Below are positions 1-21,902 of a stretch of DNA of 64,000 bases, piece after piece. The stretch is from Alphaproteobacteria bacterium. Its GTDB lineage: Bacteria; Pseudomonadota; Alphaproteobacteria; UBA828. Each line of letters starts with the position of its first letter. Position 1 is the stretch's first letter. The stretch covers positions 576,001-640,000 of the forward strand of contig CBDCCI010000002.1 in the NCBI GenBank assembly GCA_965214705.1, written 5' to 3'. The position numbers were made by a program, and so were the translations under genes. The notes beneath the pieces are model-generated. The model saw only the letters and a list, made by a program, of their open reading frames with translations, was not told where the DNA came from and did not search any database.

Positions 1-701
1 AACCAGGGGTGCGAGACCTCTTCCTGCGCCAGGCGCCATATGCTGTCGGCAGGGACGGGGTTGTAGATGGTGCGAACGCGCTCGGCGTCCACCCCCAACG
101 ATCGCCGCACGGCCTCGCCCACGCCCCTGGACACCGCCACCACCGCGTCGGCCAGCGGATAGAGCGTCCGGGCAGCGGCCAGCCACTCCGGCGCATAGCT
201 GGCGGCGACGTTGTTGTGCACCGTGACCACCACCGGAACGGCCCGGTCCGTCAGCTCCGCGGCGCAGACCGCGGCGGCGTCGGCGCTCGCCAGCGCCGAC
301 ACCAGTACATCGGGACGCGCCTCGCAGAGGTAACGGCTCAGAATGTGGACGGAAGCATAGAGAGAGCGCTTGCGCCGAACCCGTACACCAGGGTGCTTCC
401 GGCCGAGAACCAGCCAGAGCCATGCGACCCTGACCGGGTTCACGCCAAGCGTCGTTACCTCTACGCCCGACCGTTGAATTTCGCGCAAGAAGGTCCTGTC
501 GGTGTGAGGAAGCCGCCCCCGATACAGCCGCACTCCACGCGGAATTGCGGCCTTGTAGTCTCCCGCGAAGCAGGGGATCACCAGGTCAACCCGGTGTCCG
601 CGCTCGATGAGCGATTGCGCCAAGCTCAGAATGATGCGCTGCGCACCGCCGCCGCCCAGGTTGGGCAGCACGAACCCGACATGGAGTCTGCCGTCGGCCA
701 A
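1..701 (-). CDS. Glycosyltransferase family 4 (GT-B), N-terminal part; runs off window start
   Basis: Hand translation from TTG at 701 gives LHVGFVLPNLGGGGAQRIILSLAQSLIERGHRVDLV...RPDVLVS...VVVTVHN...ADAVVAVSRGV...TIYNPV, typical GT4 N-terminal motifs. Absent from the ORF track because there is no stop in the window. Confidence 0.85.
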   Translation of the reverse strand, partial: MADGRLHVGFVLPNLGGGGAQRIILSLAQSLIERGHRVDLVIPCFAGDYKAAIPRGVRLYRGRLPHTDRTFLREIQRSGVEVTTLGVNPVRVAWLWLVLGRKHPGVRVRRKRSLYASVHILSRYLCEARPDVLVSALASADAAAVCAAELTDRAVPVVVTVHNNVAASYAPEWLAAARTLYPLADAVVAVSRGVGEAVRRSLGVDAERVRTIYNPVPADSIWRLAQEEVSHPW

Positions 702-3700
702 CGGTCACGCCTTCGCAGGGCGTCGGGCACCGGCGCCGCGCACCGCCCCTATCGCGACGCTCAACCCGGCGAGAAACATGAACGCTTCCTCGCCGAGCAG
801 ATGCGCGAAGGTCATGCAGTACAGAACGATGACGATGACCCAGGCCACGGTGGCATCCCGGGCAAGCGATTTCGGCGCTACCCATTGTGTGCGCAGAAGC
901 AAGACGATGGCGGACAGAAACAGAAGCAGAGGGACGATACCGGCCTCTCCCAGCAACATAATGAACAGATTGTGAGGGTCGGGCAGCGCGCCGCTCCATG
1001 TGACGGGGGCGCCCTTCAGGTATTTCAGCGCCCTCAGACCGTGACCGAAGACGGGCGCCTCCATGGCCTTCTCGAATCCCAGCCTCCAAAGCAGCGGTCT
1101 GTCCTTCGCCAGGGCGGCGCAGATGAAGCCGTCATCGATATCGTGGCTGCGCAGACCGTACAGCTCCCACGGCATGCAGTCCTGGAAATCGTTATCGGCG
1201 ACAGCCAGCGAGAGACGCTTGATACCGGCCAATTCGGGCGGGACGGAACCGGTGAGACGGTTGTCGGCCAGCCACAGTTGCCCGAGATTCGACAGATTGG
1301 CGATCTCCCGCGGGATGGGACCCATCAGGCGGTTGTCGCCAAGCGACAGCATGGTCAGACGGGTCAGGTTCCCCAGTTCCGGTGGAATGGGGCCGGTGAG
1401 TCGGTTGCCGTCGAGCCGCAGCAGATGGAGATGGGCCAGCTCGCCCAGCTCCGGGGGGATCCGCCCGGTCAGGTTCATGTCCCGCAAGTCCAGTGCGATG
1501 ATGCGATGCCCTCGACCGATGGTGACGCCCTGCCAGGACGCGACGGGGTGAGCGTAGCTCCAGTTCAGCGCCGCGTCGCCGGCCAAGGTGTCGCGCATGC
1601 GCATCAGACGCGCGCCGTCTTCGAAAAGGCCCGGTTTGGTCCAGGGCGAAGGATCGCAGAGCAGATCGGCGGAATCCAGATCGTTGTGCCGTACCTGCGC
1701 TGCTCGCGCCGTAGCCGGAAGGCAGTCGGCAAACGCGTTGCCGCCCAGACGGAGGACCGCAAGATGAGCCCACCGGTCGAGAGCCTCGCGGAGTGCTCCG
1801 TGCAAACGATTGTTCTCGAGCCGCAGCTCCTCCAGACGCGACAGGTTGCCAAGCTGCGGATGGACGTCGCCCGTCAAGATGTTGTTCTCCAGCGCGAGCA
1901 CCCGCAGACCGGTCAGTGTGGTCAGTCCCTGCGGGATGCCGCCAGTGAGTTCGTTGCCGCCAAGACGCAACGAAACGAGTGCCTGCAACGCGCTCAGTTC
2001 CGGCGGGATCTCGCCGGTCAGCGCGTTGTTTTCCAGTACCAGCGTCCGCAGCCCGGTCAGGGTGCCCAGTTCCGGAGGGATCGGTCCCGCAAGCCGGTTG
2101 TTGCCAAGACGCAGAACGGCAAGGGCGTCCAGAGCCGACAGCTCTGCGGGAATCCGCCCGTTCAGTCCCATGTGCGACAGAGCCAGGGCGACGACCCGCG
2201 GCCCTTCCGCGGCCTCGCCGGCGATGTTGGGCATCCCGACGGTGACACCCCGCCAATAGCCGATGGGGACCGCGTCGCTCCAGTTTAGTTGGACGTCGCC
2301 GGCCAGCACGTCCCGAGCGGCTAACAACGTGGCGCAGTCGTCATACAGGCGCGGCAGTGCTTCGAGGAGGGAGTGGCAGAGCAGGTTCCGGCCGAGAACC
2401 CGACCGCGACCCTGCGCCCGGAGTTCGCCAGCCGCATCGTCATCGTCCAGGCGCAACGCTGGCAGCGCGGCCACAGAGGGCGGTGCGGGGCCGCTCAGAC
2501 GGTTCCCGCTCAGCCACAGGTCGGTGAGCCTCGACAGCTTGCCCAGTTCCGGCGGCACGGAACCGGCCAGGAGGTTGCCGCTCAATGCCAGCATGCGCAG
2601 ACCGGCGAGGTTGCCGAGCTCGGGCGGGATGTCGCCGGCAAGCCGATTGCGGCCCAGGCGCAGGGAGGCGAGTCCGGCAAGCTGCCCCAACTCCGCGGGG
2701 ATGCGTCCGTTCAAACCCATTTGCGTCAGATCCAGCGCCGTCACGCGGCCGCGCGAGCGATCCACCGCGACACCCTGCCAGTCGTCGACCGGCACATCGC
2801 GGCGCCAGTTGAGCGGCGCATCCCCGGCGAGGCTGTCTCTCACCGTCAGCAAGAGGGTGCAATCGGCGAGCAGGCCCGGATCGATTTTCTTCGGCCGGCA
2901 GAAAACCGGCCCGTCGAGGTCATGGTCGGCAATCTCGTGGAGCGCCGGCGGGAAGGGGCGGTTCAGGTCGTTGCCGGCGAGGCGCAGGAAGAAGAGATTG
3001 CCCAGTCCTTCCAGTTCCGGCGGTACGGGGCCGGCGAGCCGGTTATGGCTCAGGTCCAGAGCGACGAGGCCGCCCAATTCGCCGAGTTCCGCGAACAGGC
3101 GCCCGTTCAGTCCCGCGCGCGGCAATGCCAGTGCGGTCACGCGCTTCGGCGAGCCGCCGACGGTGACGCCCTGCCAGAACTCGATGGGGATGTCCTCGCT
3201 CCAGTCAAGCGCCGCGCCGCCGGCCAGGATGTCCTTGTTCGCCAGCAGAAGGCCGCAGTCGGCTTGCAGATCGGAAGTGACGCTGGAGGAAGGTCGACAG
3301 AACAGGCGCCTTACCGCATCCGGACGATCTCGGTTCATGCGGCGGTCCGCCGCCTGCGCCGCCTCTGCATCGTCGAGCGACCGACGATGGCGCAGATCGT
3401 GGAGGTCCAGGTCGTGGCTCGCGATCCGGTAGAGACGCCGCGGATAGGGGCGTTCCAGATCGTTGCCGGAGAGACGTATCAAGGTCAGCTTCTCCAGCCC
3501 TTCGAGTTCCGGCGGCACGGGGCCGGTCAGGCGGTTGTGCTTCAGCCACAACTCCCTGAGATGCGACAGTTTCCCCAGTTCCGGCGGAATCGGGCCGCTC
3601 AAGGCGTTGAAGGAGAGCACCAGCCGCTCCAGGTCGGACAGCTCTCCCAGTTCGGGAGGCACCGGGCCGGTCAGCCGGTTGCGATTGAGATGCAGCGAAA

Positions 3701-3988
3701 CAAGCCGGTCCAGTCCGCCCAACGCTGGCGGGATGCGCCCGTTCAGACCTGACTTGGACAGGTCGAGCCTCGTCACCCGCTCCGGCGAGCCGCCGACGGT
3801 GACGCCCTGCCAGAACTCGATGGGGATGTCCTCGCTCCAGCCGAGCGGCGCATCGCCGGCGAGGATGTCCCTCGCCGCCAACAGGAGCGCGCAATCGGCG
3901 CGCAAACCGTAAGCGGTACGCAGACCCCATACCGGAATCTGGCTTGACTACGACGGGGATTTCTTGAGGAGCGCCGTGAGCGCGCGAG

Positions 3989-5731
3989 TCATTTTGCCTC
4001 GGGCTGGAAGTTCCACGGCAGAAGCTCCTGGATGCCCGACTGCGGGTGGCCCTTGGCGATCTTCTCGAGCGTGCTCCGCATCCAGGCGTAGGGCTCGACG
4101 CCGTTCATCTTGCAGGTCTCGATCAGCGAGGCGATGCGGGCCCAGGCTTGCGCACCCTCGTCGTTGCCGGCGAAGAGCGCGTTCTTGGCGGTGAGCTTCA
4201 GCGGCCGGATTCGGTTTTCCACCAGGTTCGAGTCGATCTCGACACGACCGTCGTGCAGGAACTCCAGCAGCCCGTCCCACTGGTTGGCGATATAGGTCAG
4301 CTTCTCGCCGAGACGCGAGCGCGGTGAGACGCGCGAGCGCTGCTCGTCGAGCCAGACACCGAAGGTGTTCACGATCGGCGCCGACTCCTCCCAACGGATC
4401 GCGCGGCGCTCCGCCGGCGGCTTGCCCCGGATCTTCTTCTCGATCGCATAGAGCTTCGCGATCCGATTCAGACCGGCCAGCGCGATCGGCGATGCGCTCG
4501 AGTCGTATACCTCTTTCAGCTTCCGTCTTACATGCGCCCAACAGAGGGCCCGCGTCACAGGGCCTTCCGCCCGGTCCGGCCGCGCCAGGATGTTGTGGCC
4601 CGAGTAGCCGTCGAGCTGCACCGTCCCCGAAAAGCCCTCCATAAGCTCGGCGCCATACTTGCCGCCGCGGCCGGGCGCATAGCGATAGACGACGCCCGGC
4701 GGGTCCGTGCCGCTCCAGTGGCGCTCGTCACGCACAAGGGTCCACATGTAGCCCGTCTTCGTCTTGCCCCGGCCCGGGTCGAGAACGCGGATCGTGGTCT
4801 CGTCCAGACCCAGGTGATCCGACTTCTTCAGCTCATCCTCCAGGCAAGCGACCACGGGGCGCAGGTGAAACGACGCCTGGCCCACCCACGTCGCCAGCGT
4901 CGCACGGTGAACCTCGATCCCCGAGCGCTCGTAGATCTGCGACTGGCGATAGAGCGGGCAATGATCGCCGTACTTCGCGATCAGCACCTGCGCCAGAAGA
5001 GCCTCGGTGGGAAGGCCGCCCTCGACCAGAGCGGCCGGCGCCGGCGACTGCACCACCCCGCCCCCCTTGCACTTGTTGCAGGCGTAGCGGGGGCGCACGG
5101 TCTCGATGACGGTGAACTTCGCCGGCTCATAGTCCAGCCGCTCGCTGCGGTCCTCGCCGATCTTCGTCATCTCGCCGCAGCCGCAGGGGCACATGATCGT
5201 GTCCGGCTCGATCACCTCCTCGCGCCGGTCGACCTGGGGCCCGAAGCGCACCCCGCTGCGCGACCCCCGGGAAGAGCGCCGCCGGCGCTTGCCGCCAGCC
5301 CCCTCGTCCTGCTCCTGGTCATCTGCCTCGGGCCGACCGCCGGCTTCAGCGATCGCCGCCCAAAACTCCTCGAACGTAAGCTGGCGCTCGTCCTCGCCGA
5401 GCTTCTCGGAGCGCGGACCGAACAGCGCCTTCCTGAGCTCCTTGTTGAGATGCTCAAGCCGGCTGATCTGCTCCGCGCTCTGCGCGTTCTCGGCCTCCAG
5501 CCGTGCCGCCCGCGCTTCCGCCGTCTGCCTCGCCGCCTCCGCCGCGCCGCGTGCCTGCTCCGCTTCGCATAGGGCTGCTTCCGTCGCCCGGCGCGCCGCG
5601 CGCTCGTCGTCAAGCTCCGCATGCAGGGCCGCCAGCGCCGCCGAAACCACCGCAGGCGACGGCGAACCGGCGCTGCTGAGGGGTGAGGGCGTGACCTTCG
5701 GCATGGGCCACCCCTTAATCCGATTCGCCAA
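3989..5731 (-). CDS. tnpC: IS66 transposase TnpC
   Basis: Coiled coil, LFGPRSEK, CPCGCG zinc finger, DETT, LCWAHVRRK, DSNLVENRIRP, ELLPW. Confidence 0.95.
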   Translation of the reverse strand: MANRIKGWPMPKVTPSPLSSAGSPSPAVVSAALAALHAELDDERAARRATEAALCEAEQARGAAEAARQTAEARAARLEAENAQSAEQISRLEHLNKELRKALFGPRSEKLGEDERQLTFEEFWAAIAEAGGRPEADDQEQDEGAGGKRRRRSSRGSRSGVRFGPQVDRREEVIEPDTIMCPCGCGEMTKIGEDRSERLDYEPAKFTVIETVRPRYACNKCKGGGVVQSPAPAALVEGGLPTEALLAQVLIAKYGDHCPLYRQSQIYERSGIEVHRATLATWVGQASFHLRPVVACLEDELKKSDHLGLDETTIRVLDPGRGKTKTGYMWTLVRDERHWSGTDPPGVVYRYAPGRGGKYGAELMEGFSGTVQLDGYSGHNILARPDRAEGPVTRALCWAHVRRKLKEVYDSSASPIALAGLNRIAKLYAIEKKIRGKPPAERRAIRWEESAPIVNTFGVWLDEQRSRVSPRSRLGEKLTYIANQWDGLLEFLHDGRVEIDSNLVENRIRPLKLTAKNALFAGNDEGAQAWARIASLIETCKMNGVEPYAWMRSTLEKIAKGHPQSGIQELLPWNFQPEAK

Positions 5732-5797
5732 TGCATGACCAGGGAAAAGTGCAGGCGGGACCGCGACCGAAATCTGCGGCCCCGCCTGCGTGCCGCC

Positions 5798-6148
5798 TCA
5801 CTCCGCCGCCAGCGGGCGGCGAACCGGGCGGGCCTTCACCCGGCGCCAGTCCAGACCCTCGAAGAGGGCCTCGAACTGGCCCTTCGTAAGGCGCATCACA
5901 CCATCCTCGATCCGAGGCCAGGCGAAGCGGCCCTGCTCCAGACGCTTGTAGGTCATCACCAGACCGCTGCCGTCCCACGCAAGGAGCTTGAGCCTGTCGC
6001 CGCGGCGCGAGCGGAAGATCACGATCACCCCGGAATAGATATCGAGGTCCAGCTCCCCCGCCGCCGTCGCCGCAAGCGCGTCGTGGCCGCGACGAAAATC
6101 AACCGGCCGCGTCGCCAACACGATGCGAAGCGAGGGGGCCGCGATCAT
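5798..6148 (-). CDS. tnpB: IS66 accessory protein TnpB
   Basis: PVDFRRGHDAL...DRLKLLAWDGSG...YKRLEQGRFAWP. Confidence 0.95.
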   Translation of the reverse strand: MIAAPSLRIVLATRPVDFRRGHDALAATAAGELDLDIYSGVIVIFRSRRGDRLKLLAWDGSGLVMTYKRLEQGRFAWPRIEDGVMRLTKGQFEALFEGLDWRRVKARPVRRPLAAE

Positions 6149-6600
6149 GACGACGCCCGGCCCAGGCCCGAGGCCACCGCAACAATCCGATCGACCGCGC
6201 TCTCCACCGGAAGGCGAACGACCACGCCTAGCGCCTCGATCGCCACCGTCCGCTCGGACGTCACGCTATCAACCACCACGGGAACAAATGGCGGTGCAGA
6301 GCCACCAATCCGAGCGCCCGGAAGAGTTCCCTCCCGCGCGCGCCGCCGCCACTTGGTCAGGGTCGTATCGCTGACGCCATGGCGGCGCGCGACCGCCGCA
6401 ACCGAAGAGCCCGGCTCAAAGCTCTCCGAGACAATCCGCGCCTTCTCATCGTCCGGCCAGCGTCGCATGGGGGCCGGCTCAGACGGAGCCGGGGCGGCTC
6501 CCTCAGAAGCTGGGATCTCAACCGAAGCAACAGCGACACCGTCGCCAGATGCCAAAATCGAATCTGTCATCGCGATCTCTCCTGTGTGGCTCGTGGTCAA
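6145..6600 (-). CDS. tnpA: IS66 TnpA (HTH)
   Basis: RRWPDDEKARIVSES..SVAAVARRHGVS..LTKWRR; start uncertain. Confidence 0.85.
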   Translation of the reverse strand: MTTSHTGEIAMTDSILASGDGVAVASVEIPASEGAAPAPSEPAPMRRWPDDEKARIVSESFEPGSSVAAVARRHGVSDTTLTKWRRRAREGTLPGARIGGSAPPFVPVVVDSVTSERTVAIEALGVVVRLPVESAVDRIVAVASGLGRASS

Positions 6601-6989
6601 GGCGGAGAGTCAGCCCCGAAATCAGATCCGCTGGAAGTATGGGGGCCCGATACCGCTTACCGCAAACCGGGATTGTCGGCGGGAGCGGCGGGGCAGGGCG
6701 CGTCCCTGCCGGCGACCGCGCGCAGCTCGGGAGGGAGGAAACCGGTCAGGCGGTTGCCGCTCAGCCAGAGCTTCCTGAGGCTCGACAGCTTCGCCAGTTC
6801 CGCAGGGACGGGGCCGGTCAGGGCATTGTTGGCAAGCCCGAGCCTTTCCAGGTCGGTCAGTTTCCCCAGCTCGGGTGGAATGGCGCCGGTCAGCGCATTG
6901 CTGTCGAGCACCAGGGACCGCAAGCCGGCGAGATGCCCAAATGCCGCGGGTACGCGCCCCCTCAGCCCCGTTCGGGGCAGCTCCAGCGC

Positions 6990-8130
6990 AATGACACGAC
7001 CTTCCGGACCGCCCACGGTCACACCTTGCCATAAGCCGATAGGGACCGCCGCGTGCCAGTCGAGCGGCGCGCCGCCGGCCAGCGTGTCCTTCGCCGCCAG
7101 CAGCGTCGTGCAGTCCTCGAACAACGCGGGGCTGGTTCGCGGCGGCGGCAGGCAGAGCACGAGGCGGCCGAGATCGTGGTCAGGGACATCGAACAGCGCC
7201 GGCGGAACAGGGCCGGTCAGGCGGTTCTCTCTCAACCACAAGGCCCTGAGCCGGGGGAGTCGTGCCAGTTCCGCAGGGACGGTGCCAGTCAGGGCGTTGC
7301 GATCCAGGCTCAAGTCGCGCAGGTGGACGAGTTGTCCCAACTCCGGCGGAATCGAACCGGTGAGCCGATTGGCGGCCAAGTTCAACGAGACGAGGCCGTC
7401 CAGCCTGCCGAGGCTCGGGGGAATGCGTCCGTTCAGCCCTTTCCCGTACAGATCCAGCGCGATGACACGACCTTCCGGACCGCCCACGGTCACGCCTTGC
7501 CATAAGCCGATGGGGACCGCCGCGTGCCAGTCGAGCGGGGCGCCGCCGGCCAGCGTGTCCTTCGCCGCCAGCAGCCGCGTGCAGTCGCCGAACAACGCGG
7601 GGCTGGTTCGTGGTGGCGGCAGGCAGAGCACGAAGCGGCCGAGATCGTGGTCAGGGACATCGAACAGCGCCGGCGGAACAGGGCCGGTCAGGCGGTTCTC
7701 TCTCAACCACAAGGCCCTGAGCCGGGGGAGTCGTGCCAGTTCCGCAGGGACGGTGCCGGTCAGGGCGTTGCGATCCAGGGCCAAGACGCGCAGGTCGACG
7801 AGTTGTCCCAACTCCGGCGGAATCGAACCGGTGAGCCGATTGGCGGCCAGGTTCAACGAGACGAGGCCGTCCAGCCTGCCGAGTTTCGGGGGAATGCGTC
7901 CGTTCAGCCCTCTCCCGTACAGATCCAGCGCGATGACACGACCTTCCGGACCGCCCACGGTCACGCCTTGCCACAAGCCGATGGGGACCGCCGCGTGCCA
8001 ATCGAGCGGCGCGTCACCGGCCAGCGTGTCCTTCGCCGCCAGCAGCGTCGTGCAGTCCTCGAACAACGCGGGGCTGGTTCGAGGCGGCGGCAGGCAGAGC
8101 ACGAAGCGGCCGAGATCGTGGTCGGCGACG
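6990..8130 (-). repeat. 471-bp (157-aa) near-identical tandem units within the LRR gene (~2.4 copies)
   Basis: GCAGAGCAC anchor recurs at 7152, 7623 and 8094 (period 471); protein unit DCTxLLAAKDTLAG...DHDLGRxVLCLPPPRTSPALF. Confidence 0.9.
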
Positions 8131-8350
8131 GTATTGATTTCGGGAGGAATGGAGTCGAAGTCGTTGCCCCAGAGACGCAGGACGGACAGCCGGAGCTCTC
8201 CGATAGCGGCCGGGACAGGGCCGGTCAAGCGGTTGCCTTGCAACCACAACGGGCTCGAGGTTCTTGAGCTGTAAGCGGTACGCAGACCCCATACCGGAAT
8301 CTGGCTTGACTACGACGGGGATTTCTTGAGGAGCGCCGTGAGCGCGCGAG

Positions 8351-10093
8351 TCATTTTGCCTCGGGCTGGAAGTTCCACGGCAGAAGCTCCTGGATGCCCG
8401 ACTGCGGGTGGCCCTTGGCGATCTTCTCGAGCGTGCTCCGCATCCAGGCGTAGGGCTCGACGCCGTTCATCTTGCAGGTCTCGATCAGCGAGGCGATGCG
8501 GGCCCAGGCTTGCGCACCCTCGTCGTTGCCGGCGAAGAGCGCGTTCTTGGCGGTGAGCTTCAGCGGCCGGATTCGGTTTTCCACCAGGTTCGAGTCGATC
8601 TCGACACGACCGTCGTGCAGGAACTCCAGCAGCCCGTCCCACTGGTTGGCGATATAGGTCAGCTTCTCGCCGAGACGCGAGCGCGGTGAGACGCGCGAGC
8701 GCTGCTCGTCGAGCCAGACACCGAAGGTGTTCACGATCGGCGCCGACTCCTCCCAACGGATCGCGCGGCGCTCCGCCGGCGGCTTGCCCCGGATCTTCTT
8801 CTCGATCGCATAGAGCTTCGCGATCCGATTCAGACCGGCCAGCGCGATCGGCGATGCGCTCGAGTCGTATACCTCTTTCAGCTTCCGTCTTACATGCGCC
8901 CAACAGAGGGCCCGCGTCACAGGGCCTTCCGCCCGGTCCGGCCGCGCCAGGATGTTGTGGCCCGAGTAGCCGTCGAGCTGCACCGTCCCCGAAAAGCCCT
9001 CCATAAGCTCGGCGCCATACTTGCCGCCGCGGCCGGGCGCATAGCGATAGACGACGCCCGGCGGGTCCGTGCCGCTCCAGTGGCGCTCGTCACGCACAAG
9101 GGTCCACATGTAGCCCGTCTTCGTCTTGCCCCGGCCCGGGTCGAGAACGCGGATCGTGGTCTCGTCCAGACCCAGGTGATCCGACTTCTTCAGCTCATCC
9201 TCCAGGCAAGCGACCACGGGGCGCAGGTGAAACGACGCCTGGCCCACCCACGTCGCCAGCGTCGCACGGTGAACCTCGATCCCCGAGCGCTCGTAGATCT
9301 GCGACTGGCGATAGAGCGGGCAATGATCGCCGTACTTCGCGATCAGCACCTGCGCCAGAAGAGCCTCGGTGGGAAGGCCGCCCTCGACCAGAGCGGCCGG
9401 CGCCGGCGACTGCACCACCCCGCCCCCCTTGCACTTGTTGCAGGCGTAGCGGGGGCGCACGGTCTCGATGACGGTGAACTTCGCCGGCTCATAGTCCAGC
9501 CGCTCGCTGCGGTCCTCGCCGATCTTCGTCATCTCGCCGCAGCCGCAGGGGCACATGATCGTGTCCGGCTCGATCACCTCCTCGCGCCGGTCGACCTGGG
9601 GCCCGAAGCGCACCCCGCTGCGCGACCCCCGGGAAGAGCGCCGCCGGCGCTTGCCGCCAGCCCCCTCGTCCTGCTCCTGGTCATCTGCCTCGGGCCGACC
9701 GCCGGCTTCAGCGATCGCCGCCCAAAACTCCTCGAACGTAAGCTGGCGCTCGTCCTCGCCGAGCTTCTCGGAGCGCGGACCGAACAGCGCCTTCCTGAGC
9801 TCCTTGTTGAGATGCTCAAGCCGGCTGATCTGCTCCGCGCTCTGCGCGTTCTCGGCCTCCAGCCGTGCCGCCCGCGCTTCCGCCGTCTGCCTCGCCGCCT
9901 CCGCCGCGCCGCGTGCCTGCTCCGCTTCGCATAGGGCTGCTTCCGTCGCCCGGCGCGCCGCGCGCTCGTCGTCAAGCTCCGCATGCAGGGCCGCCAGCGC
10001 CGCCGAAACCACCGCAGGCGACGGCGAACCGGCGCTGCTGAGGGGTGAGGGCGTGACCTTCGGCATGGGCCACCCCTTAATCCGATTCGCCAA
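8351..10093 (-). CDS. tnpC: IS66 transposase TnpC
   Basis: Identical protein to 3989..5731. Confidence 0.95.
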   Translation of the reverse strand: MANRIKGWPMPKVTPSPLSSAGSPSPAVVSAALAALHAELDDERAARRATEAALCEAEQARGAAEAARQTAEARAARLEAENAQSAEQISRLEHLNKELRKALFGPRSEKLGEDERQLTFEEFWAAIAEAGGRPEADDQEQDEGAGGKRRRRSSRGSRSGVRFGPQVDRREEVIEPDTIMCPCGCGEMTKIGEDRSERLDYEPAKFTVIETVRPRYACNKCKGGGVVQSPAPAALVEGGLPTEALLAQVLIAKYGDHCPLYRQSQIYERSGIEVHRATLATWVGQASFHLRPVVACLEDELKKSDHLGLDETTIRVLDPGRGKTKTGYMWTLVRDERHWSGTDPPGVVYRYAPGRGGKYGAELMEGFSGTVQLDGYSGHNILARPDRAEGPVTRALCWAHVRRKLKEVYDSSASPIALAGLNRIAKLYAIEKKIRGKPPAERRAIRWEESAPIVNTFGVWLDEQRSRVSPRSRLGEKLTYIANQWDGLLEFLHDGRVEIDSNLVENRIRPLKLTAKNALFAGNDEGAQAWARIASLIETCKMNGVEPYAWMRSTLEKIAKGHPQSGIQELLPWNFQPEAK

Positions 10094-10159
10094 TGCATGA
10101 CCAGGGAAAAGTGCAGGCGGGACCGCGACCGAAATCTGCGGCCCCGCCTGCGTGCCGCC

Positions 10160-10510
10160 TCACTCCGCCGCCAGCGGGCGGCGAACCGGGCGGGCCTTCA
10201 CCCGGCGCCAGTCCAGACCCTCGAAGAGGGCCTCGAACTGGCCCTTCGTAAGGCGCATCACACCATCCTCGATCCGAGGCCAGGCGAAGCGGCCCTGCTC
10301 CAGACGCTTGTAGGTCATCACCAGACCGCTGCCGTCCCACGCAAGGAGCTTGAGCCTGTCGCCGCGGCGCGAGCGGAAGATCACGATCACCCCGGAATAG
10401 ATATCGAGGTCCAGCTCCCCCGCCGCCGTCGCCGCAAGCGCGTCGTGGCCGCGACGAAAATCAACCGGCCGCGTCGCCAACACGATGCGAAGCGAGGGGG
10501 CCGCGATCAT
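10160..10510 (-). CDS. tnpB: IS66 accessory protein TnpB
   Basis: Identical to 5798..6148. Confidence 0.95.
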   Translation of the reverse strand: MIAAPSLRIVLATRPVDFRRGHDALAATAAGELDLDIYSGVIVIFRSRRGDRLKLLAWDGSGLVMTYKRLEQGRFAWPRIEDGVMRLTKGQFEALFEGLDWRRVKARPVRRPLAAE

Positions 10511-10962
10511 GACGACGCCCGGCCCAGGCCCGAGGCCACCGCAACAATCCGATCGACCGCGCTCTCCACCGGAAGGCGAACGACCACGCCTAGCGCCTCG
10601 ATCGCCACCGTCCGCTCGGACGTCACGCTATCAACCACCACGGGAACAAATGGCGGTGCAGAGCCACCAATCCGAGCGCCCGGAAGAGTTCCCTCCCGCG
10701 CGCGCCGCCGCCACTTGGTCAGGGTCGTATCGCTGACGCCATGGCGGCGCGCGACCGCCGCAACCGAAGAGCCCGGCTCAAAGCTCTCCGAGACAATCCG
10801 CGCCTTCTCATCGTCCGGCCAGCGTCGCATGGGGGCCGGCTCAGACGGAGCCGGGGCGGCTCCCTCAGAAGCTGGGATCTCAACCGAAGCAACAGCGACA
10901 CCGTCGCCAGATGCCAAAATCGAATCTGTCATCGCGATCTCTCCTGTGTGGCTCGTGGTCAA
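10507..10962 (-). CDS. tnpA: IS66 TnpA (HTH)
   Basis: Identical to 6145..6600. Confidence 0.85.
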   Translation of the reverse strand: MTTSHTGEIAMTDSILASGDGVAVASVEIPASEGAAPAPSEPAPMRRWPDDEKARIVSESFEPGSSVAAVARRHGVSDTTLTKWRRRAREGTLPGARIGGSAPPFVPVVVDSVTSERTVAIEALGVVVRLPVESAVDRIVAVASGLGRASS

Positions 10963-12630
10963 GGCGGAGAGTCAGCCCCGAAATCAGATCCGCTGGAAGT
11001 ATGGGGGCCCGATACCGCTTACCTTGAGCTTCGCCAACTCCGGCGGGATGGCCCCGGTCAAGGCGTTGAGGCCGAGATGCAGATACTCGAGGCTCGCCAG
11101 ATTTCCCAGCTCGGGCGGAATGCGACCGGTGAGCCGATTGCGTCCAAGGGACAGCGAAACGAGGCGGTCCAGGCGGCCAAGATCCGGGGGGATACGGCCG
11201 TTCAATCCAAGTCCCGCCAGATCCAGCCCGGTGACGCGTCCCTCCGGGCCTTCCACCGTCACGCCCTGCCAGCCGTTGACGGGCACGGTGCGGCTCCAGT
11301 TGAGGGCAATGTCTCCGGCCAGGATGTCCCTCGCCGCCAGCAGTACGGCGCAGTTCGCGCCAGGATTGGCGGTCGGCGAAGGGTCGCAGAACAGCTTCCT
11401 CTCAAGCATGTCGCCGGAAACGTTCCGCAACATCGACCACTGGGACAGACCGTCGGAGAATGCCGCAACGCCGACGAAGCCTGCAATCCCGACAAATCCT
11501 GTGGCGGCCAAAGCCAGGACGAAGGCCCTTGGTTTGCCGCGGACATTGATCAACAGGAACAAAACCATCAACGCACCGAGTATGACCAACGCGGTTCTGG
11601 ACGCCGACCCCAGGCTTGCGGCGACGCCGGCGGCCAGGCCCAGCCAACCGAGCGTGCGCGGCCCGCCATTGGTCAGGAACGCCGCGGCGAGTCCCACCGT
11701 CATGCAGGCGACCAAGCCGGCGTTGTTGGGCTCGGTGAAAGCACCGGTCAGGCGGAATGGAATTCTGTAAGGCGCCAGGATGCCGAGATCGCGCAGAATC
11801 GGCGAAGCGAGAATGATGACGCAGCTCGAAATCAGGACGACAAGCACGCCCTGCAACAACCGGTCGGTGCCGACTCGTTCCAGCACCGCGCGGCCACCGA
11901 CTGCGGCAGCCACGAACACACCAAAACCAAGGACCATAAATCGCAGTGTCCCAGCCGTGCCCGGCCGCCAGTCCGCCTCGTCCATCACGGCAAAGCCGAT
12001 CGCCAGATAGGATGCCACCGCACCGAGCAACAACACGCCGGGCATTCCGCCCACTGTGCTCAGGACAGAGAGGCGTGAGCCGGACTTCCGCCAGGCAAAC
12101 AAGCATCGAATTCCAACCAGGCCCACCAGGATGACTATGCATGCCATGGTCGCCCGTGCGATGACGCCTACGACTTGCGGCATCCCCCAAAGATGCAGTT
12201 CCCGCGCGCCGGTCAGAGCGATGACAGCCAACGTCCAGAACGCGACCGCGATCAGCGCGGTCTGGAGCGCCTCGCTTCGGCGCAGCAGCAAGACTGGATG
12301 TCTGAACAGGAACATTTTCTGGATCTGAGGGGCCGACGCTCAAAAATGAATACTAACCCGAAATTGAGGTGTGTGCGCTGGCGTTTTGCCGTGAAAATGT
12401 CTGGGATCGGCGCAAACCAAGTCGTTGCGACGCTGGGGTCCATCCGGCGGCGGCAGTTCACCGTCGGCAACAGGCGCCCGGTTGGGTGGCTACGAGCGGT
12501 AGACTTCCCCGATGTGGCCCGAAGTCGGCCTCCGCCTGAGCGCGTCTACATTTTCATTCTACGGGGTGGCCGAGCCGCCGGCCATGAAAGTTATCGACAG
12601 CGCGCCGCTGATCCAGCTAAAGCCCCAAGA

Positions 12631-14977
12631 TTACGTTTCATACTGCACCTCACTACTCCCTTGGTCGGCAAGATCGGGGAAACGTCCCTGTCTTGGGCTT
12701 GGCCCTGGTTGTTCGGTCGGTGGTGGATCGAGGATTTCGTACAGGTATCGGGGTCTGTCGCTGTAGGCGTGTGCGCGCAGCAGCCCGGCCTTGTGCCATC
12801 TGTAGACCGTCGTGTCGGACACCCCGAATCGGTCGGCGATTTCCAGGGCCGTCAACAGACCGCGTTCGCGCAGTCGATCATGGCGGGACTTGAGAGCGTA
12901 GTTGTCCCGGACCACCTTCACCGATATCGGGTCGAAGGCGTGGCCGTGTCCGGTTCGGTACCCGCGCTGGTTGAGAATCGCTGCGATCTCGCCATCGGTG
13001 TGATCGTTCATCAGCCTGTCGACCTCGGCGACGACCTCGTCGCTGGTCTTGATGAGCTGGGAAGGGTGAGGGTCCGGCGTCCAGGCGATCTGTCGGGTCG
13101 CGCCGCCGCGCAGCCGCACTCCCAGGCTCCGCGTGGCCTTGGTCAGGGTCACGTCCTCGATCAGCAGCCGCGCCATCCGCTTGCGCTCGCGGTGCGGCGT
13201 CGCCGGATCGTTCCACAGGCGGGGGAAGTCGCTGGCCAGGGCGAGGATTCGCTCGCGTTGCGCGTCGTCCAACCCCTGGCCCGGTTCGGCGCGGCTGCGC
13301 TCGCGCTCGCGCTGGGCCTCGTCGAGTGCGCGAAGCTTCGCGTTCCACTCCGCCTCCAGCACGTCGGCCACCATCCGGTTGTCGGGATGGGTCTGCATGA
13401 ACCGCTGGCGCGCCAGGTCGGCTTCCTCGCGGGCGCGCTGCACCCGCTGAGCGCGCCACAGATCCGCCTCTCCGGCGCGCGCGGCGAGTTCGTCCTGCAC
13501 CTGCAACGCGACGTCCAGCGTGAGCGGTGTCATCAGCTCGACCAGCAGCGCGCCAACCGCCCGGTCGATGGCGCCGCCGGATATGCTCTGGCAATTCTCC
13601 GCGCTCGCCGTCTCGACCCTTTCGCGATTGCACAGGTAATGGGGGCTTTGTTGCCCTTTTGCGGTTCGGTAGCGCACCGTCATGTTCCTGCCGCACACGC
13701 CGCAGATCGCCAGGCCCTGCAGCAGCGCAGACCCTTCGCGCGGGGCGCCGCGTCGCTGCGCTGCGGCGTGCGCCTGGGCATTGTCCCGGAGCTGGCGCTC
13801 ATTCTGCTCGAAGCGCTCCCAGGTGATGTAGCCCGGGTGGGCATCGCGCAGCAGCACCGTCCATTCCTCTCGCGGAACGCTTCTGGTCTCGATACCGCCG
13901 CCGGGACGGCGCCGGCTGCGGCTGCGCCCGTACGCGAAAGCGCCGGCGTATCGCGGGTTGTGCAGAAGCCCCCGCGCGCGCGAACCTCAGGGGCTTCCAA
14001 TGCAGCTCACCGCTGTGGGGCCCGCCTTGAGGACGGTACGGAAACAGCAGCTTCTCGTTGTTGAAATGCCTGACCGTGGCGCTGGCCGAGCCGGTCCGCG
14101 CGAAGGTGTCGAATATCAGGCGCAGGCTGTGCTGCACCTGCTCGTCGGGGTCGAGCACCACCTGGCCGAGCGGGTCGTAGACCAGCCCCACCGGCAGCGG
14201 CACCTTCAACTCCCCGCGCTTGGCCTTGGCCAGCACTCCGCCACGCAGCCGGATGCGCATCATATGCAGCTCCGCTTCCGACATGGTCCCTTTGAGCCCG
14301 AGCAGGAGCCTATCGTTGAAGTCGCCGGGGTCGTAGACACCGTCCTCGTCGAGGATGAGCGTCTCGCTCAGGGCGCAGATCTCAAGCAGGCGGTGCCAGT
14401 CTCAGACTTCCTGACCCCGAGCTGGAAAGGTGTGGGCGGTCCCTATAGTCATGATCTTGAGGTTGCACACAAATCTCGTCTCCCTGGGCCTCGCGGCTCC
14501 GTGCGGCACGGCGGCCGCCAGAAATTTTGAGTTGATACGGAACGTCTTGCCGGAGCCACCCGCCGCAACCGGAAAGCCGCAGAAACTGGCGCTTTCGTCT
14601 CGTCTCGCTGGCCGGATCTCCACGCAAACCGTGTCACCCAAAATTATCAGAGGTCAGGAAGTCTGAGTCTGTGGAGTTGCGCGCGAGGCGGCTGACCTCA
14701 AGCCCGAGCACGATCCCGGCCCGGCCCATGCCGACCTCGGCGACCAGATGCTGGAATCCCTCGCGGTCGGCGTCGGCACCGGAGAGACCGAGGTCTTTGT
14801 CGATCACGACGATGCTCTCGGTCGGCCAGCCAGCGCCACGGCCCGCTCCCGCAGCGCGTACTGGCGGCGCGTACTCTCGCCATGGTCGAGCACCTGGCGC
14901 TGGGTAGACTGACGCACGTACAGATAGGCATCGCGGCTCAGGTGGCTCGCGGCCACCTTCTGGTGAGCGGTGTTCAT
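12631..14977 (-). pseudogene. Large serine recombinase, disrupted (frameshifts near 14830 and 13975; MITE insertion)
   Basis: YLYVRQST catalytic motif, SRLARNS, LLGLKGTMSEAELH, HNPRYAG, LLQGLAICGVCG zinc ribbon, C-terminal EVQYET. Confidence 0.9.
14402..14666. mobile_element. 265-bp MITE-like insertion
   Basis: 15-bp perfect TIR TCAGACTTCCTGACC/GGTCAGGAAGTCTGA; 3-bp duplication GTC; removal restores LARNSTDWHR in the recombinase. Confidence 0.9.
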
Positions 14978-15916: not shown

Positions 15917-16222
15917 TTACACATGCGGCAAAATCTCCTTGACAGTCCCCGCCCCACCCTCGGCCTCCCTGCCGGCACGGCCGGCCCCCTCCAGGCCGGC
16001 CAGCAATGACCCCAGCGCGAGCAGATCAGACACCCGAAACGCCGACCGGCCCGACCCCACCCGCACAAACGGATCCTCGCAGGCAACGCTGGTCCAGCCT
16101 CGCCGTATGCTGCGCAGCACGCCGTCATCTCCCGTGTAATGCACCAACTCCACTCCCATCACCGACTTGATCTCGACCAGTGGGAACTCACGGCCGTGAA
16201 GCGGATGAAACGGGTGCGTCAC
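15917..16222 (-). CDS. DUF5372/Y4bD-like small protein
   Basis: VTHPFHPLHGREF...WTS...DPFV..GRSAFRVSDLLAL; paralogue of 19896..20201. Confidence 0.75.
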   Translation of the reverse strand: MTHPFHPLHGREFPLVEIKSVMGVELVHYTGDDGVLRSIRRGWTSVACEDPFVRVGSGRSAFRVSDLLALGSLLAGLEGAGRAGREAEGGAGTVKEILPHV

Positions 16223-17418
16223 CCGGACGAGCTGCCGCTCGACGCATCCGAGGGGTGCAGTTGAGGGCCCAGTCCCATGATCGTGGCGACGGCCTTTCCG
16301 ACCCTCTCGGCGGCGGCTTCGATGTCGCGGTCGCCGAGGTGGGCGTAGCGGAGCGTCATGCGCGAATTGGAGTGGCCAAGCAGGCGGGAGACGACAGGGA
16401 CCGGCACGCCGTTCATGACCGCGTGGCTCGCCACGGTATGGCGCAGGTCGTGAAGCCGGCAGTCCTCGATGCCGGCCTTGCGGCGGACCCGGTACCAGAG
16501 AGAGAGTTCGGACCCGCGCGGCCGCGACGGATGGCGCGGCGAAGGGAACACGAAGCGGCTTTCTCCCCGCTTCTGGCGGTCCAGGATGCTCCTGGCCTGG
16601 GCGTTGAGGGGAACCTTTCTCGGCCCGGTCTTGCTGTCGGCAAGCATCAGCGCGCCGCTCTGGACCTCGGACCAGCGGAGCCCGGCGATTTCTCCCCTGC
16701 GGCATCCGGTGAGAAGCAGCAGGCGGATAATGTCGGCCTGCGGCCTGAACCGCTCTCCCCGCTTGGCCTCTTCGTCGAGGACGGCGTGAAGACGCGCGAT
16801 CTCCTCGCGCGACAGGAAGCGCGTCATCGGCGGCCGGCGGTTGGGCGCGATGCCCTGCGCGGGGTTGCTGTCGAGGAGGCCGCGGGCGATGGCGAGGTTG
16901 AAGATCGAGCGAAGCAGCTTGAGCGCGTTGTTGGCGTTGCCGGGCGCGGTGCGGCTGAATGCGTCGAACCAGCGCCTGACCTGCGCAGGCGTTATGCGCT
17001 CGAGCGGGGTCGCGCCGAAGGCGGGGAGGAGGCGGGTATCGAGCAGGCAGGCATAGGACTTCCCGGTCGCGGGCTTGCAGCGCCCGAAAATCGCCTCCTT
17101 CCATGGACCCTCCACGAACTCGCGGCACAGGGGGGCGGCGGGCGCCGGACGGACGGGCTTGTCCGTCTCCGGGCTTGCCCGGCGCTCATGGCACTCCCGC
17201 CGCGCCTCCTCCACGGTCCTGGTCGAGACCGGGCCGAGGGAGACGCGCCTGGAGCGCCCCCCGGCGTGCTCCAGCAGAACCCAGGTCTTTCCGCCGCTCG
17301 GACGGACCCGGACCCCGAGGCCGGGCACGCTCTTGTCCCAGACGGCATACTCCCGCGCGCGGGGGCGGAGACCGGCGACGGCGTCGTCGGTGAGCTTCCT
17401 GCGTTCCCTTGCCGGCAC
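16219..17418 (-). CDS. Tyrosine integrase with arm-binding domain (C-terminus extended by element insertion)
   Basis: WDKSVPGLGVRVRPSGGKTW, LTGCRRGEI, HDLRHT, LLGHS..MTLRYAH. Confidence 0.92.
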   Translation of the reverse strand: MPARERRKLTDDAVAGLRPRAREYAVWDKSVPGLGVRVRPSGGKTWVLLEHAGGRSRRVSLGPVSTRTVEEARRECHERRASPETDKPVRPAPAAPLCREFVEGPWKEAIFGRCKPATGKSYACLLDTRLLPAFGATPLERITPAQVRRWFDAFSRTAPGNANNALKLLRSIFNLAIARGLLDSNPAQGIAPNRRPPMTRFLSREEIARLHAVLDEEAKRGERFRPQADIIRLLLLTGCRRGEIAGLRWSEVQSGALMLADSKTGPRKVPLNAQARSILDRQKRGESRFVFPSPRHPSRPRGSELSLWYRVRRKAGIEDCRLHDLRHTVASHAVMNGVPVPVVSRLLGHSNSRMTLRYAHLGDRDIEAAAERVGKAVATIMGLGPQLHPSDASSGSSSG

Positions 17419-17421
17419 GGC

Positions 17422-19842: not shown

Positions 19843-19895
19843 GGACCAAGCATTTAACTGCACTCGATCCACAGCATGAGGGTCGAACCTTTCGG

Positions 19896-21860: not shown

Positions 21861-21902
21861 AAGGGTTGGGCAGGCTCTCTCTCGAGAGCCTGCCCAACCC
21901 TT
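21861..21902. repeat. Perfect 19-bp stem, 4-nt loop at the end of the IS91-like element
   Basis: AAGGGTTGGGCAGGCTCTC-TCTC-GAGAGCCTGCCCAACCCTT. Confidence 0.9.

Follow-up and report, generated by a model that had tools for sequence, protein, structure and literature searches.

A WaaL/Wzy_C-superfamily membrane enzyme with nine plant-type LRR modules in the loop after TM9

Introduction

WaaL (Wzy_C, PF04932), represented by the Cupriavidus metallidurans structures 7TPG/7TPJ, is a polytopic enzyme whose catalytic segment, in the periplasm, follows TM9; part of one published account (PMC12800693) assigns Arg residues of the structure to diphosphate coordination and proposes a His as catalytic. 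The O-linking oligosaccharyltransferases PglL, PglS and TfpM belong to the same superfamily and, as a section of the same account puts it, some have an additional periplasmic domain, as in residues 438-548 of PglS (PMC12800693). Two other kinds of system come close: the repeat-unit polymerases of Wzx/Wzy-dependent pathways, and the putative O-glycosylation ligase family TIGR03097 (PEP_O_lig_1) of exosortase A systems, whose usual neighbours are TIGR03088 (a glycosyltransferase) and TIGR03108 (an amidotransferase). We know of no description of TIGR03097 as LRR-bearing. The gene examined here encodes a protein of this superfamily with a large LRR array, an architecture that the initial annotation suspected to be undescribed; the literature and sources searched gave neither a description nor a name for such a family.

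A single gene split by two insertion sequences

As it stands, the window (the whole 64,000-nt stretch of DNA analysed) shows three separate ORFs on the minus strand between positions 705 and 12315. These are the parts of one gene, split by two IS66 copies and a one-base length change, as the initial annotation had proposed. The two copies, each of 2,752 bp and 100% identical, also lie on the minus strand, at 3909-6660 (copy 1) and 8271-11022 (copy 2, IS2). Their terminal inverted repeats begin GTAAGCGGTA, and their ORFs match IS66 TnpC, TnpB and HTH TnpA (in copy 1, tnpC at 3989-5731, tnpB at 5798-6148 and tnpA at 6145-6600). An 8-bp direct duplication flanks each element, CGCAAACC at 3901-3908/6661-6668 for copy 1 and CTTGAGCT at 8263-8270/11023-11030 for copy 2, and, at a threshold of at least 99%, the element is present in the genome as 31 full-length copies.

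Removal of each IS with one duplication leaves pieces 12315-11023, 8262-6661 and 3900-705, 6,091 nt in total. Piece 1 (aa 1-431) opens with the start codon and runs through TM helices 1-9 and LRR module 1 into the beginning of the next repeat, terminating in the IS2 target duplication; piece 2 contributes the remaining repeats of module 1 and modules 2-4; piece 3 comprises modules 5-9 (1104-3900) and a catalytic C-terminal part (705-1103) that ends in the stop codon. Pieces 2 and 3 share a reading frame; between pieces 1 and 2 it is offset by one base. The one-gap comparison with the intact paralogue shows the cause: the three bases GAG of the paralogue correspond to four, CCCG, at 8250-8253 of the window, a site 10-13 nt away from the IS2 duplication. 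Read through, the product is 2,029 aa long. Contigs from sequencing runs of three studies join 3900 to 6661, with exactly 2,760 nt left out, a length equal to that of the IS together with one duplication.

At least three paralogous copies of the cassette that carries this gene are present in the host genome, one of them intact. Its gene (C1:497254-503349, on contig C1) encodes 2,031 aa without interruption and is collinear with the window pieces by blastn, at nucleotide identities of 95.4% (0 gaps), 96.1% (1 gap) and 97.8% (6 gaps). In the wider family, 80 long relatives of 1,117-3,555 aa are likewise single polypeptides, for most of which Pfam records list LRR as well as Wzy_C domains, and there are 89 shorter relatives. 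Taken at face value, the ORFs would be three separate genes, one for a membrane protein and two for LRR proteins, the second of these with a membrane tail; the ORF boundaries are exactly the IS66 ends and target duplications, and the joined sequence is collinear with the paralogue and the long relatives, which refutes that reading and leaves it practically no probability. The window thus holds one gene for an inner-membrane protein, in a copy that was inactivated recently. This copy is dead, and any function is therefore that of the paralogue and relatives. Between the window copy and the paralogue, dN/dS is 0.82 for the LRR array and 0.45 and 0.22 for the TM parts, values based on small counts with one partner a pseudogene.

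Enzyme family, topology and insertion site

The protein is an inner-membrane enzyme of the WaaL/Wzy_C superfamily with 12 predicted TM helices. Pfam Wzy_C matches the intact paralogue above its cut-off (36.6 bits against 31.7) in two stretches that flank the LRRs, so that the match predicted for the joined halves is indeed found. In the window, Wzy_C positions 3-70 fall at 11425-11637 and positions 81-149 at 915-1109 (33.9 bits); taken alone as proteins, the window halves stay below the Pfam cut-off (29.3 bits, Wzy_C 82-149). Among solved structures, WaaL 7TPG is hit by a profile of 131 relatives (E 5.6e-8) and by one of 69 LRR-free relatives (E 4.6e-9); the 131-relative profile aligns the conserved Arg of the family with R265 and its His-Asn with H313-N314. 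Near-invariant across the 131 sequences are R189, G192, P197, N198, S240, R653, P668, G671, G673, H695 and N696. The motifs initially annotated can all be located in the window, on the minus strand: RLTGAFTEPN (11725-11754) and SRT (11593-11601) in piece 1, and R-x2-LW (1086-1100), P-x2-GHG (1038-1055) and HN-x-F-x2-LLGE-x-G (939-974) in piece 3. Among curated families, TIGR03097 comes nearest to the LRR-free relatives (31/69, best E 2.2e-13), and TfpM matches 9/69, the repeat-unit polymerase model TIGR04370 6/69 and the RfaL model 2/69. The host carries two further, ordinary genes of the Wzy_C family.

The loop after TM9 is enlarged by nine capped plant-type LRR modules, some 1,600 aa, which lie between TM9 and a short helix bearing the conserved Arg; the GHG and His-Asn motifs follow, then TM helices 10-12. 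An AlphaFold model of a 783-aa two-module relative, P0105 (pLDDT 86.8, pTM 0.76), which is about 69% identical to the window protein in the N-domain, has this order: nine helices, two LRR solenoids with low-confidence linkers, a helix at 652-666 and three further helices. The intact paralogue is arranged in the same way according to its hydropathy profile. Loops assigned to the cytoplasm hold 10 Lys/Arg in 54 residues, as against 4 in 50 for the short loops assigned to the periplasm, a distribution that favours an N-in topology. One relative is naturally joined in frame, at its C-terminus, to a GT4 of cytoplasmic type, which fits a C-in topology. Together with the WaaL alignment, these observations uphold the initial placement of the LRRs in a periplasmic loop, with the Arg-bearing helix predicted to be periplasmic as well. 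That the array is internal and not terminal, also as first annotated, follows from the LRR-free relatives of about 460 aa, which can be aligned through the insertion point. Proteins of another class, about 580 aa long, carry an unrelated insert of about 170 aa there.

The LRR modules

Nine W-x-G-V caps are present both in the window read-through and in the paralogue, in agreement with the nine modules first counted. Those of modules 2-4 lie in piece 2 (7959-7973, 7488-7502 and 7017-7031) and those of modules 5-9 in piece 3 (3798-3812, 3162-3176, 2766-2780, 2241-2255 and 1521-1535), all on the minus strand. The initial description of the LRRs as plant-type is supported: among the Foldseek matches listed, in a ranking dominated by LRRs, the best-ranked are ectodomains of plant LRR receptors and LRR proteins (best E about 3e-14). 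The Pfam model LRRNT_2 did not appear among the matches listed for the caps at E ≤ 0.1 or 0.01. A Cys pair precedes 503/581 caps in 63 proteins.

Every module has a collinear counterpart in 62/62 full-length relatives, across which median identity is 69-80% for the LRR modules and 66-68% for the TM and catalytic parts. Judged by these sequence comparisons, the modules are conserved at least as well as the catalytic core. Modules 2 and 3, at 92-95% DNA identity, are nearly identical products of a recent duplication. Module number in relatives ranges from 1 to 10, with two recurrent size classes, of 2 modules (37 proteins) and of 8-10 (67 proteins). We read the array as individually conserved modules on flexible linkers that form a putative binding scaffold for a conserved periplasmic partner. 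Of the roles that the initial annotation suggested for it, in acceptor selection, chain length or host interaction, the last fits poorly with an array anchored in the inner membrane at both ends.

A glycan cassette that appears to be mobile

As annotated at the outset, the gene is followed closely by a GT4 glycosyltransferase gene: its stop codon ends at 705 and the GT4 gene begins at 701 on the same strand, with 3 nt between them, and continues beyond the window (1-701; complete ORF 416 aa). A GT4 is immediately downstream in 14/19 loci; further on come a Wzx-like gene and a reverse-strand AsnB. The cassette consists of the LRR-enzyme gene first, up to three GT4s (three in the intact paralogue's cassette), a 12-TM Wzx-like protein and a divergent AsnB-like amidotransferase. 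The label Wzx-like is based on protein-atlas features (score 0.99), and Pfam lends it no support at E ≤ 1. TIGR03088 and TIGR03108 are among the top matches of the GT4s and the AsnB-like gene, at scores below cut-offs, and no exosortase was found in any of six cassette-bearing genomes (the host and five others). Since the cassette lacks an initiating phosphoglycosyl transferase and searches of the host genome for Wzz, Poly_export and Bac_transf gave no match, the host shows no evident export route of the classical Wzx/Wzy/Wzz/Wza type.

Two tandem tyrosine-integrase genes (16219-18543, minus strand), separated from the gene by about 3.9 kb of other mobile DNA, share 96.7% DNA identity with a pair directly adjoining the intact paralogue. 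MAGs under six phylum labels carry relatives and closely related cassettes, and phylum labels are intermixed in the family tree (support 97-100). The N-domain was found in 0/40 relatives and 0/400 genomes of the host's class; it is 77% identical to that of a MAG labelled Bryobacterales, whereas host RpoB is 58-59% identical to that of Acidobacteriaceae-labelled MAGs. These comparisons suggest that the gene family is mobile, travelling between bacterial phyla with a small sugar-chain cassette.

Proposed function and alternatives

We consider it probable that the protein performs the periplasmic transfer step for a mobile GT4/Wzx-like glycan cassette and that its LRR array acts as a conserved scaffold for binding. 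In such a scheme, the GT4s would build an undecaprenyl-diphosphate-linked oligosaccharide at the cytoplasmic face and the Wzx-like protein would flip it, whereupon the LRR enzyme would carry out transfer in the periplasm by means of its conserved Arg, for diphosphate binding, and His; the array may bind the acceptor, the growing chain or an envelope component. Within this explanation, a repeat-unit polymerase or a cassette-specific ligase is favoured because the enzyme accompanies its own glycosyltransferases and flippase and not host core-LPS genes, though this more specific proposal is tentative, and its polymerase part is weakened by the lack of an evident classical export route.

Two other kinds of transferase deserve consideration. 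LRRs typically bind proteins, and the modules could capture periplasmic acceptor proteins for the active site of a protein O-oligosaccharyltransferase of the PglL/PglS/TfpM kind. The TIGR03097 and NCBIfam TfpM matches of LRR-free relatives and a family-profile match to the solved 'Oligosaccharyltransferase' 9RMK (E 4e-4) point in this direction, the lack of Wzz or Poly_export matches in the host is consistent with single-unit transfer, and known enzymes such as PglS provide a precedent for extra periplasmic domains. Curated cut-offs are missed widely, however (for example, TfpM at 14.8 bits against 600), WaaL is the stronger structural-sequence match, the cassette has no conserved candidate acceptor gene, and the PEP-CTERM acceptor idea behind TIGR03097 is inapplicable because exosortase was found in none of the six genomes; we regard such an enzyme as unlikely. 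Quite unlikely, too, is a true WaaL that ligates the cassette glycan to lipid A-core, its array adapted to the acceptor or to LPS transport. WaaL 7TPG is the best solved-structure match, with Arg and His aligned, and in a host with no OPX exporter match, linkage to LPS would offer the glycan a way to the surface, but a ligase must recognise the lipid A-core of each host, and this gene moves with GT4 and Wzx-like genes in an integrase-flanked cassette under six phylum labels. The RfaL model, moreover, matched few LRR-free relatives, and either of the two ordinary Wzy_C-family genes could be the host's ligase.

The array might also lack a specific role, the LRRs being a selfish repeat expansion in an insertion-tolerant loop. 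The site can hold an unrelated insert or none, two modules are recent duplicates and module number varies; yet each of the nine modules has its collinear counterpart in every full-length relative, at high median identity, the cap Cys pairs are retained and the size classes recur, so we find this very improbable and continue to prefer a periplasmic transfer enzyme with a binding scaffold.

Comparison with known systems

The interrupting elements are conventional, with the tnpA, tnpB and tnpC (DDE_Tnp_IS66) genes, terminal inverted repeats and 8-bp target duplications of the IS66 family, and are unusual only in their high abundance here. Plant LRR receptor-kinase ectodomains (HSL1, GSO1, ERL1, MIK2 and FLS2), the best-ranked among the Foldseek matches listed, share 24-residue plant-type repeats and capped solenoids with the product of the interrupted gene at 20-31% identity, whereas here short modules of 3-6 repeats are strung nine times and tethered at both ends to a bacterial membrane enzyme, with no kinase and no LRRNT_2 cap match. 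Wzy repeat-unit polymerases offer the likeness of a Wzy_C-type enzyme beside glycosyltransferases and a Wzx-like protein, but the host has no match to a Wzz-type co-polymerase or OPX exporter. TIGR03097 is the nearest curated family for the LRR-free relatives, at scores below cut-offs, and the cassette's GT4s and AsnB-like gene match its usual neighbours; unlike exosortase A systems, the cassette occurs in genomes in which exosortase was not found. The resemblance to PglL, PglS and TfpM is one of superfamily, with weak matches to TfpM and 9RMK, but their extra domain is C-terminal, neither inserted nor of LRR type, and the family misses their equivalog cut-offs. WaaL, the best solved-structure match, is likewise a polytopic membrane enzyme with its catalytic segment after TM9, at a remote sequence similarity (35 bits) that covers the C-terminal two thirds only. 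In contrast to WaaL, the present protein carries its LRR modules, about 1,600 aa in all, between TM9 and the helix with the conserved Arg, and its gene lies in a mobile GT4/Wzx-like cassette and not among core-LPS genes.

The interrupted gene and its intact counterpart

The gene belongs to a real, conserved enzyme family that moves horizontally, and the window copy is a pseudogene. Three long open reading frames on the minus strand (10984-12315, 6657-8249 and 705-3905; pieces 1 to 3) are parted by two blocks, offset by 4,362, which are identical to one another across 2,753 bases. These blocks are IS66 copies of 2,752 bp each, IS1 at 3909-6660 and IS2 at 8271-11022, each bounded by terminal inverted repeats and an 8-bp direct target duplication (the two being CGCAAACC and CTTGAGCT). 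Profile matches identify their reading frames as TnpC (DDE_Tnp_IS66, 324 bits), TnpB_IS66 and an HTH transposase at the tnpA position; the tnpA-tnpB-tnpC gene set, the inverted repeats and the 8-bp duplication together define them as members of IS66. When each IS is taken out with one of its duplications, the remaining segments, 12315-11023 + 8262-6661 + 3900-705, amount to 6,091 nt. Joined and aligned to the intact paralogue, they return exactly the ~2,029 aa that the initial annotation had given for the rejoined gene. Piece 3 is in frame with piece 2, and piece 2 is off by one base relative to piece 1 because four bases replace three of the paralogue within 8250-8262, at 10-13 nt from the IS2 duplication; the one extra base noted at the outset is thus accounted for. 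This four-for-three replacement may have been left behind when the IS inserted, instead of arising as a mutation of its own.

The intact counterpart lies in the same genome, an assembly of 7.92 Mb in three contigs with 67% G+C that is 98.5% complete. A Pfam Wzy_C search of this genome picked out, on contig C1, an open frame of 2,034 codons, with half-matches at 2-70 (N) and 81-149 (C), which is the uninterrupted 2,031-aa paralogue (C1:497254-503349). Over their full length, the three window pieces align with it, at identities of 95.4%, 96.1% (one gap) and 97.8% (six gaps). Contigs from public sequencing runs of three studies join 3900 to 6661, skipping exactly 2,760 nt, and the uninterrupted 3900/6661 junction exists as DNA. 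These contigs, which cross IS1, may derive from the intact paralogue and not from an IS-free allele of the window locus, their origin being ambiguous because the flanking matches span only 30-68 nt at a likeness of at least 90%. Among the sequencing runs listed as carriers, none was of RNA.

Further copies are scattered through the genome. A second large one (L010; C1:2489072-2498013) carries one IS66 elsewhere in its LRR region and a second where its GT4 gene begins, and fragments occur at C1:452629-453528, C3:524901-525686 and C2:705042-707102, all of these coordinates being HSP ends. Between the window gene and L010, IS66 has entered LRR-coding DNA of this family in three independent insertions in one genome, two of them in the window. 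The IS66 element is present in 31 full-length genome copies at a minimum identity of 99%, and an IS91-type (Y2 transposase) element at 21855-24522 in 62 copies. A further element left of the window likewise has dozens of genome copies. Insertion sequences saturate this genome, and the window gene is among those they have disrupted.

Divergence between the window copy and the paralogue is distributed unevenly along the gene, with dS of 0.10 in the N-domain (the TM part before the LRR array), 0.03 in the array and 0.08 in the C-domain (the catalytic part after it), and this unevenness points to gene conversion, or to mosaic recombination between paralogous copies. A hint of dN/dS above 1 in modules 1-3 and at concave-face positions (1.26 versus 0.74) was set aside because it involves only 5-20 changes and one of the copies is a pseudogene.

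Kinship with WaaL and conserved residues

The protein belongs to one superfamily with WaaL, the PglL/PglS/TfpM O-OTases and the Wzy polymerases. In the intact paralogue, the Wzy_C/WaaL match anticipated for the N and C halves lies above the Pfam threshold (PF04932, 36.6 bits in two stretches; gathering cut-off 31.7). A six-frame search of the window pieces gave 33.9 bits for the C half and 21.1 bits for the N half, and piece 3 alone, searched as a protein, gave 29.3 bits. A profile of 131 relatives, in which the LRR columns are treated as insertions, matches the solved WaaL of Cupriavidus metallidurans (7TPG) at E 5.6e-8 and 9RMK (‘Oligosaccharyltransferase’) at E 4e-4, while a profile of 69 LRR-free relatives matches WaaL at E 4.6e-9. 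Cut-offs of two curated models are not reached, namely the TfpM NCBIfam equivalog (14.8 bits; cut-off 600) and TIGR03097 PEP_O_lig_1 (16.4 bits; cut-off 188.1).

The profile alignment to 7TPG, from which we take residue numbers, places the Arg of the family’s R-x2-LW motif on R265 and its His-Asn pair on H313-N314. Residue roles are those of the WaaL structure as described in PMC12800693, which speaks of a proposed catalytic histidine and diphosphate-coordinating arginines. The family Arg and His are nearly invariant in the 131 sequences and present in the window copy. The same holds for the wider set of motifs picked out in the initial annotation: RLTGxFxxPN, SRT, R..LW, P..GHG and HN all correspond to nearly invariant positions of the 131-sequence alignment, and all are intact in the window. 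An identity with the Xanthomonas LRR type III effectors (XopAC, XopAE, XopL) was rejected, as the best match reaches 124 bits against cut-offs of 450-600 bits and covers LRR repeats only; it is also ruled out by the protein being an integral membrane enzyme.

Predicted placement of the LRR array

For structure prediction, a 783-aa two-module relative that is ~69% identical in the N-domain (P0105) stood in for the 2,031-aa paralogue. A first AlphaFold model, built on 49 close relatives, was discarded (pLDDT 63.6, pTM 0.39); with 131 sequences including LRR-free relatives, pLDDT rose to 86.8 and pTM to 0.76. In this model, nine long helices extend to residue 287 and lead through a low-confidence linker into two capped LRR solenoids, themselves separated by a low-confidence linker. 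There follow an Arg-bearing helix at 652-666 (the conserved Arg), the GHG loop, the His-Asn helix and lastly three helices. The paralogue shows this layout in its hydropathy too, its one large loop counting 1,655 residues, and loops assigned to the cytoplasm are richer in Lys/Arg than short periplasm-assigned ones (10 of 54 residues versus 4 of 50). Nature supplies a fusion in one relative, P0034, whose C-terminus is joined to a GT4 glycosyltransferase, a cytoplasmic type of enzyme, and an N-in/C-in topology with the LRRs outside fits this arrangement.

By prediction, the protein is polytopic, with 9 + 3 helices, TM9 and TM10 being joined by a large periplasmic loop in which the catalytic residues would reside. 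The P0105 model, the hydropathy and the Lys/Arg bias concur in predicting that the array is inserted between TM9 and the Arg-bearing helix, and so bear out the proposal that it is internal to the loop. The original sequence observation is confirmed, and the reading of the gene as an O-antigen ligase-like enzyme with LRRs in its catalytic loop is supported.

LRR modules and size classes

The paralogue matches LRR_8 (213.7 bits, 11 stretches) and LRR_1 (245.3 bits) above cut-off, and nine W-x-G-V caps are found in it as well as in the read-through of the window gene. Each cap is preceded by a pair of Cys residues, 12-22 residues apart, with one extra pair after the last module; the cap pattern can be written C-x(12-14)-C ... 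W-x-G-V. The caps fail to match Pfam LRRNT_2, the model expected of them, at E <= 0.1 or 0.01. The best-ranked of the Foldseek matches listed are ectodomains of plant LRR receptors or LRR proteins (HSL1, GSO1, ERL1; E ~1e-14 to 1e-11, identity 20-31%), and the family shows ‘plant-type’ LRR ectodomains recruited into a bacterial envelope.

All nine modules have a collinear counterpart in each of 62 full-length relatives, at a median identity of 69-80%; the corresponding values are 66% (N-domain) and 68% (C-domain). Being collinear and no less conserved than the core, the modules are therefore under constraint at least equal to that of the enzyme core. Such constraint, as judged from sequence conservation, speaks against the array being either a functionless expansion or the product of a fast arms race. 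Self-glycosylation of the Ser/Thr/Pro-rich stretches was also considered and rejected, since these stretches seem to be structural parts of the Cys-Cys loop in each cap.

Among 1.84 billion cluster representatives, only 119 match the N-terminal TM domain at E <= 0.001, most of them 420-480 aa long, and a larger collection holds 80 matching proteins of 1,117-3,555 aa together with 89 shorter ones. Of the stored relatives in which the C-terminal His-Asn motif is retained, 66 proteins have no module, 25 have one, 37 have two, 15 have three to seven and 67 have eight to ten. In a class of ~580 aa, the site of LRR insertion is occupied by an unrelated insert of ~170 aa that has neither LRRs nor an extra Pfam match and, in the member tested (P0147), no usable protein-atlas match. 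Members of this subclass (P0147 and P0155, loci L118 and L121) occupy the distal end of the cassette, beyond the AsnB-like gene. Elsewhere, a Gammaproteobacteria-labelled MAG carries three tandem family genes of 833, 1,178 and 2,059 codons (L104; G042:C1:5310299-5317458), with short, medium and long LRR arrays adjacent.

A mobile glycan cassette

At the intact-paralogue locus, two tyrosine integrases are followed by the LRR enzyme, three GT4 genes, a gene for a 440-aa polytopic protein, a divergent AsnB-type gene and transposases. The three GT4s are paralogous; in NCBIfam they come closest to a PglJ-like family and to the XrtA-system GT TIGR03088, without reaching a cut-off. These three genes (L009:3506-7250) also pass the Pfam model ‘GT4-conflict’ at 38-45 bits (cut-off 26), a weaker match than to the general GT4 models. 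The 440-aa neighbour, with 12 TM segments, has a feature-based protein-atlas score of 0.99 to Polysacc_synt/Wzx-type clusters and no Pfam match at E <= 1. The AsnB-type amidotransferase passes asn_synth_AEB, and nearest to it is the XrtA amidotransferase TIGR03108, below the cut-off of that model.

In the window, a paralogous copy of this cassette (86-97% identity) has a further IS in the GT4 region and extra mobile DNA that parts the gene from its integrase pair at 16219-18543. Between gene and integrases lies a truncated serine-recombinase-like ORF (12631-13857; Zn_ribbon_recom, HTH). A long frame matching DUF5372 (15917-17128) overlaps the first integrase gene, and a Mu-transposase C-terminal fragment is found at 19021-19872. 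In other genomes (18 public MAG records), GT4 directly follows the family gene in 14 of 19 loci, Wzx-like and AsnB genes come next in those loci that extend far enough, and tandem sets of two or three family genes occur at some loci. No conserved content was found upstream of the family gene between the loci compared. A WaaL in the strict sense would be encoded with the host's lipid A-core and act on it; the context, a mobile GT4/Wzx-like cassette beside integrases, speaks against this identity.

The distribution of the family departs from that of its host’s lineage. In RpoB, the host shares 75-77% identity with alphaproteobacterial records and 58-59% with Acidobacteriaceae-labelled MAGs. The N-domain was found in none of 40 host relatives (20 of them congeneric) and in none of 400 sampled genomes of the host’s class, and is 56-77% identical to genes in MAGs of ten labels: Bryobacterales, Vicinamibacterales, Terriglobia, Gammaproteobacteria, Pseudomonadales, Alphaproteobacteria, Nitrospirales, Longimicrobiales, Candidatus Entotheonella and Candidatus Binatia (labels as in the record titles, with the weak match L122 left out). 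Eukaryote-like repeat proteins are a known theme in sponge microbiomes, and we take this mix of carriers to resemble that of marine sponges. Candidatus Entotheonella is described as a sponge symbiont in PMC4996862. The maximum-likelihood tree mixes labels, joining Gammaproteobacteria with Nitrospirales (100/100) and Binatia with Nitrospirales (100/100), and groups the host copies with Bryobacterales, Gammaproteobacteria and Alphaproteobacteria (97/96). On these sequence comparisons, the family makes a clear case for a glycan cassette moving across phylum labels.

Possible functions

Enzymes of the WaaL/Wzy/PglL superfamily perform the last, periplasmic step of O-antigen, capsule and glycoprotein synthesis, and their acceptor choice and chain-length control are only partly understood. 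We regard family membership, architecture, cassette and mobility as established here, and the cassette’s content suggests a route: the GT4s would assemble a lipid-linked oligosaccharide, the Wzx-like protein would flip it, and the LRR enzyme would carry out the periplasmic transfer. That the enzyme travels with its own glycosyltransferases and putative flippase speaks for a polymerase or a cassette-specific ligase, but a classical polymerase route sits poorly with a host genome, 98.5% complete, that has no match to Wzz, Poly_export or Bac_transf; the genome does hold three PF00953 (WecA/MraY-type) genes. The curated families nearest to the LRR-free relatives, TIGR03097 (31 of 69) and TfpM (9 of 69), all below cut-off, speak for an O-OTase; the repeat-unit polymerase model matches 6 of 69 and RfaL 2 of 69, also below cut-off. 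The exosortase link implied by TIGR03097, TIGR03088 and TIGR03108 is unsupported, because none of six cassette-bearing genomes (the host and five others) has a match to Exosortase_EpsH.

The same six cassette hosts (the host and 5/5 others) have no match to a Wzz-type co-polymerase (PF02706), from which one might conclude that the LRR array replaces Wzz as a built-in ruler. Yet none of 20 congeners without the cassette has Wzz either, so its absence is not specific to the cassette and carries no weight. A broader proposal, which we consider unlikely, is that the LRR array makes the cassette portable by serving as a built-in, host-independent partner module, that the two array sizes specify two product classes, and that the unit is exchanged among unrelated bacteria sharing a habitat. 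On this proposal, the array could be an acceptor-presenting platform, or could serve the growing chain as molecular ruler or chaperone, and would do the job that falls to separate co-polymerase or adaptor proteins elsewhere; the two recurrent sizes would be 2 versus 8-10 modules, sometimes in tandem. If true, the LRR array itself would account for the portability of the cassette.

Whether polymerase, ligase or O-OTase, an enzyme with up to ten individually conserved LRR modules beside its active site would constitute a natural experiment in enzyme-partner coupling, and the two-module forms, at ~780 aa, are of a size that suits expression and cryo-EM. Full-text literature searches brought up no description of an LRR-in-Wzy_C architecture, and the enzyme family appears to be undescribed in print. 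What sets it apart from WaaL, the PglL/PglS/TfpM O-OTases and the Wzy polymerases is the plant-type LRR array within the enzyme and the cross-phylum cassette that surrounds it.
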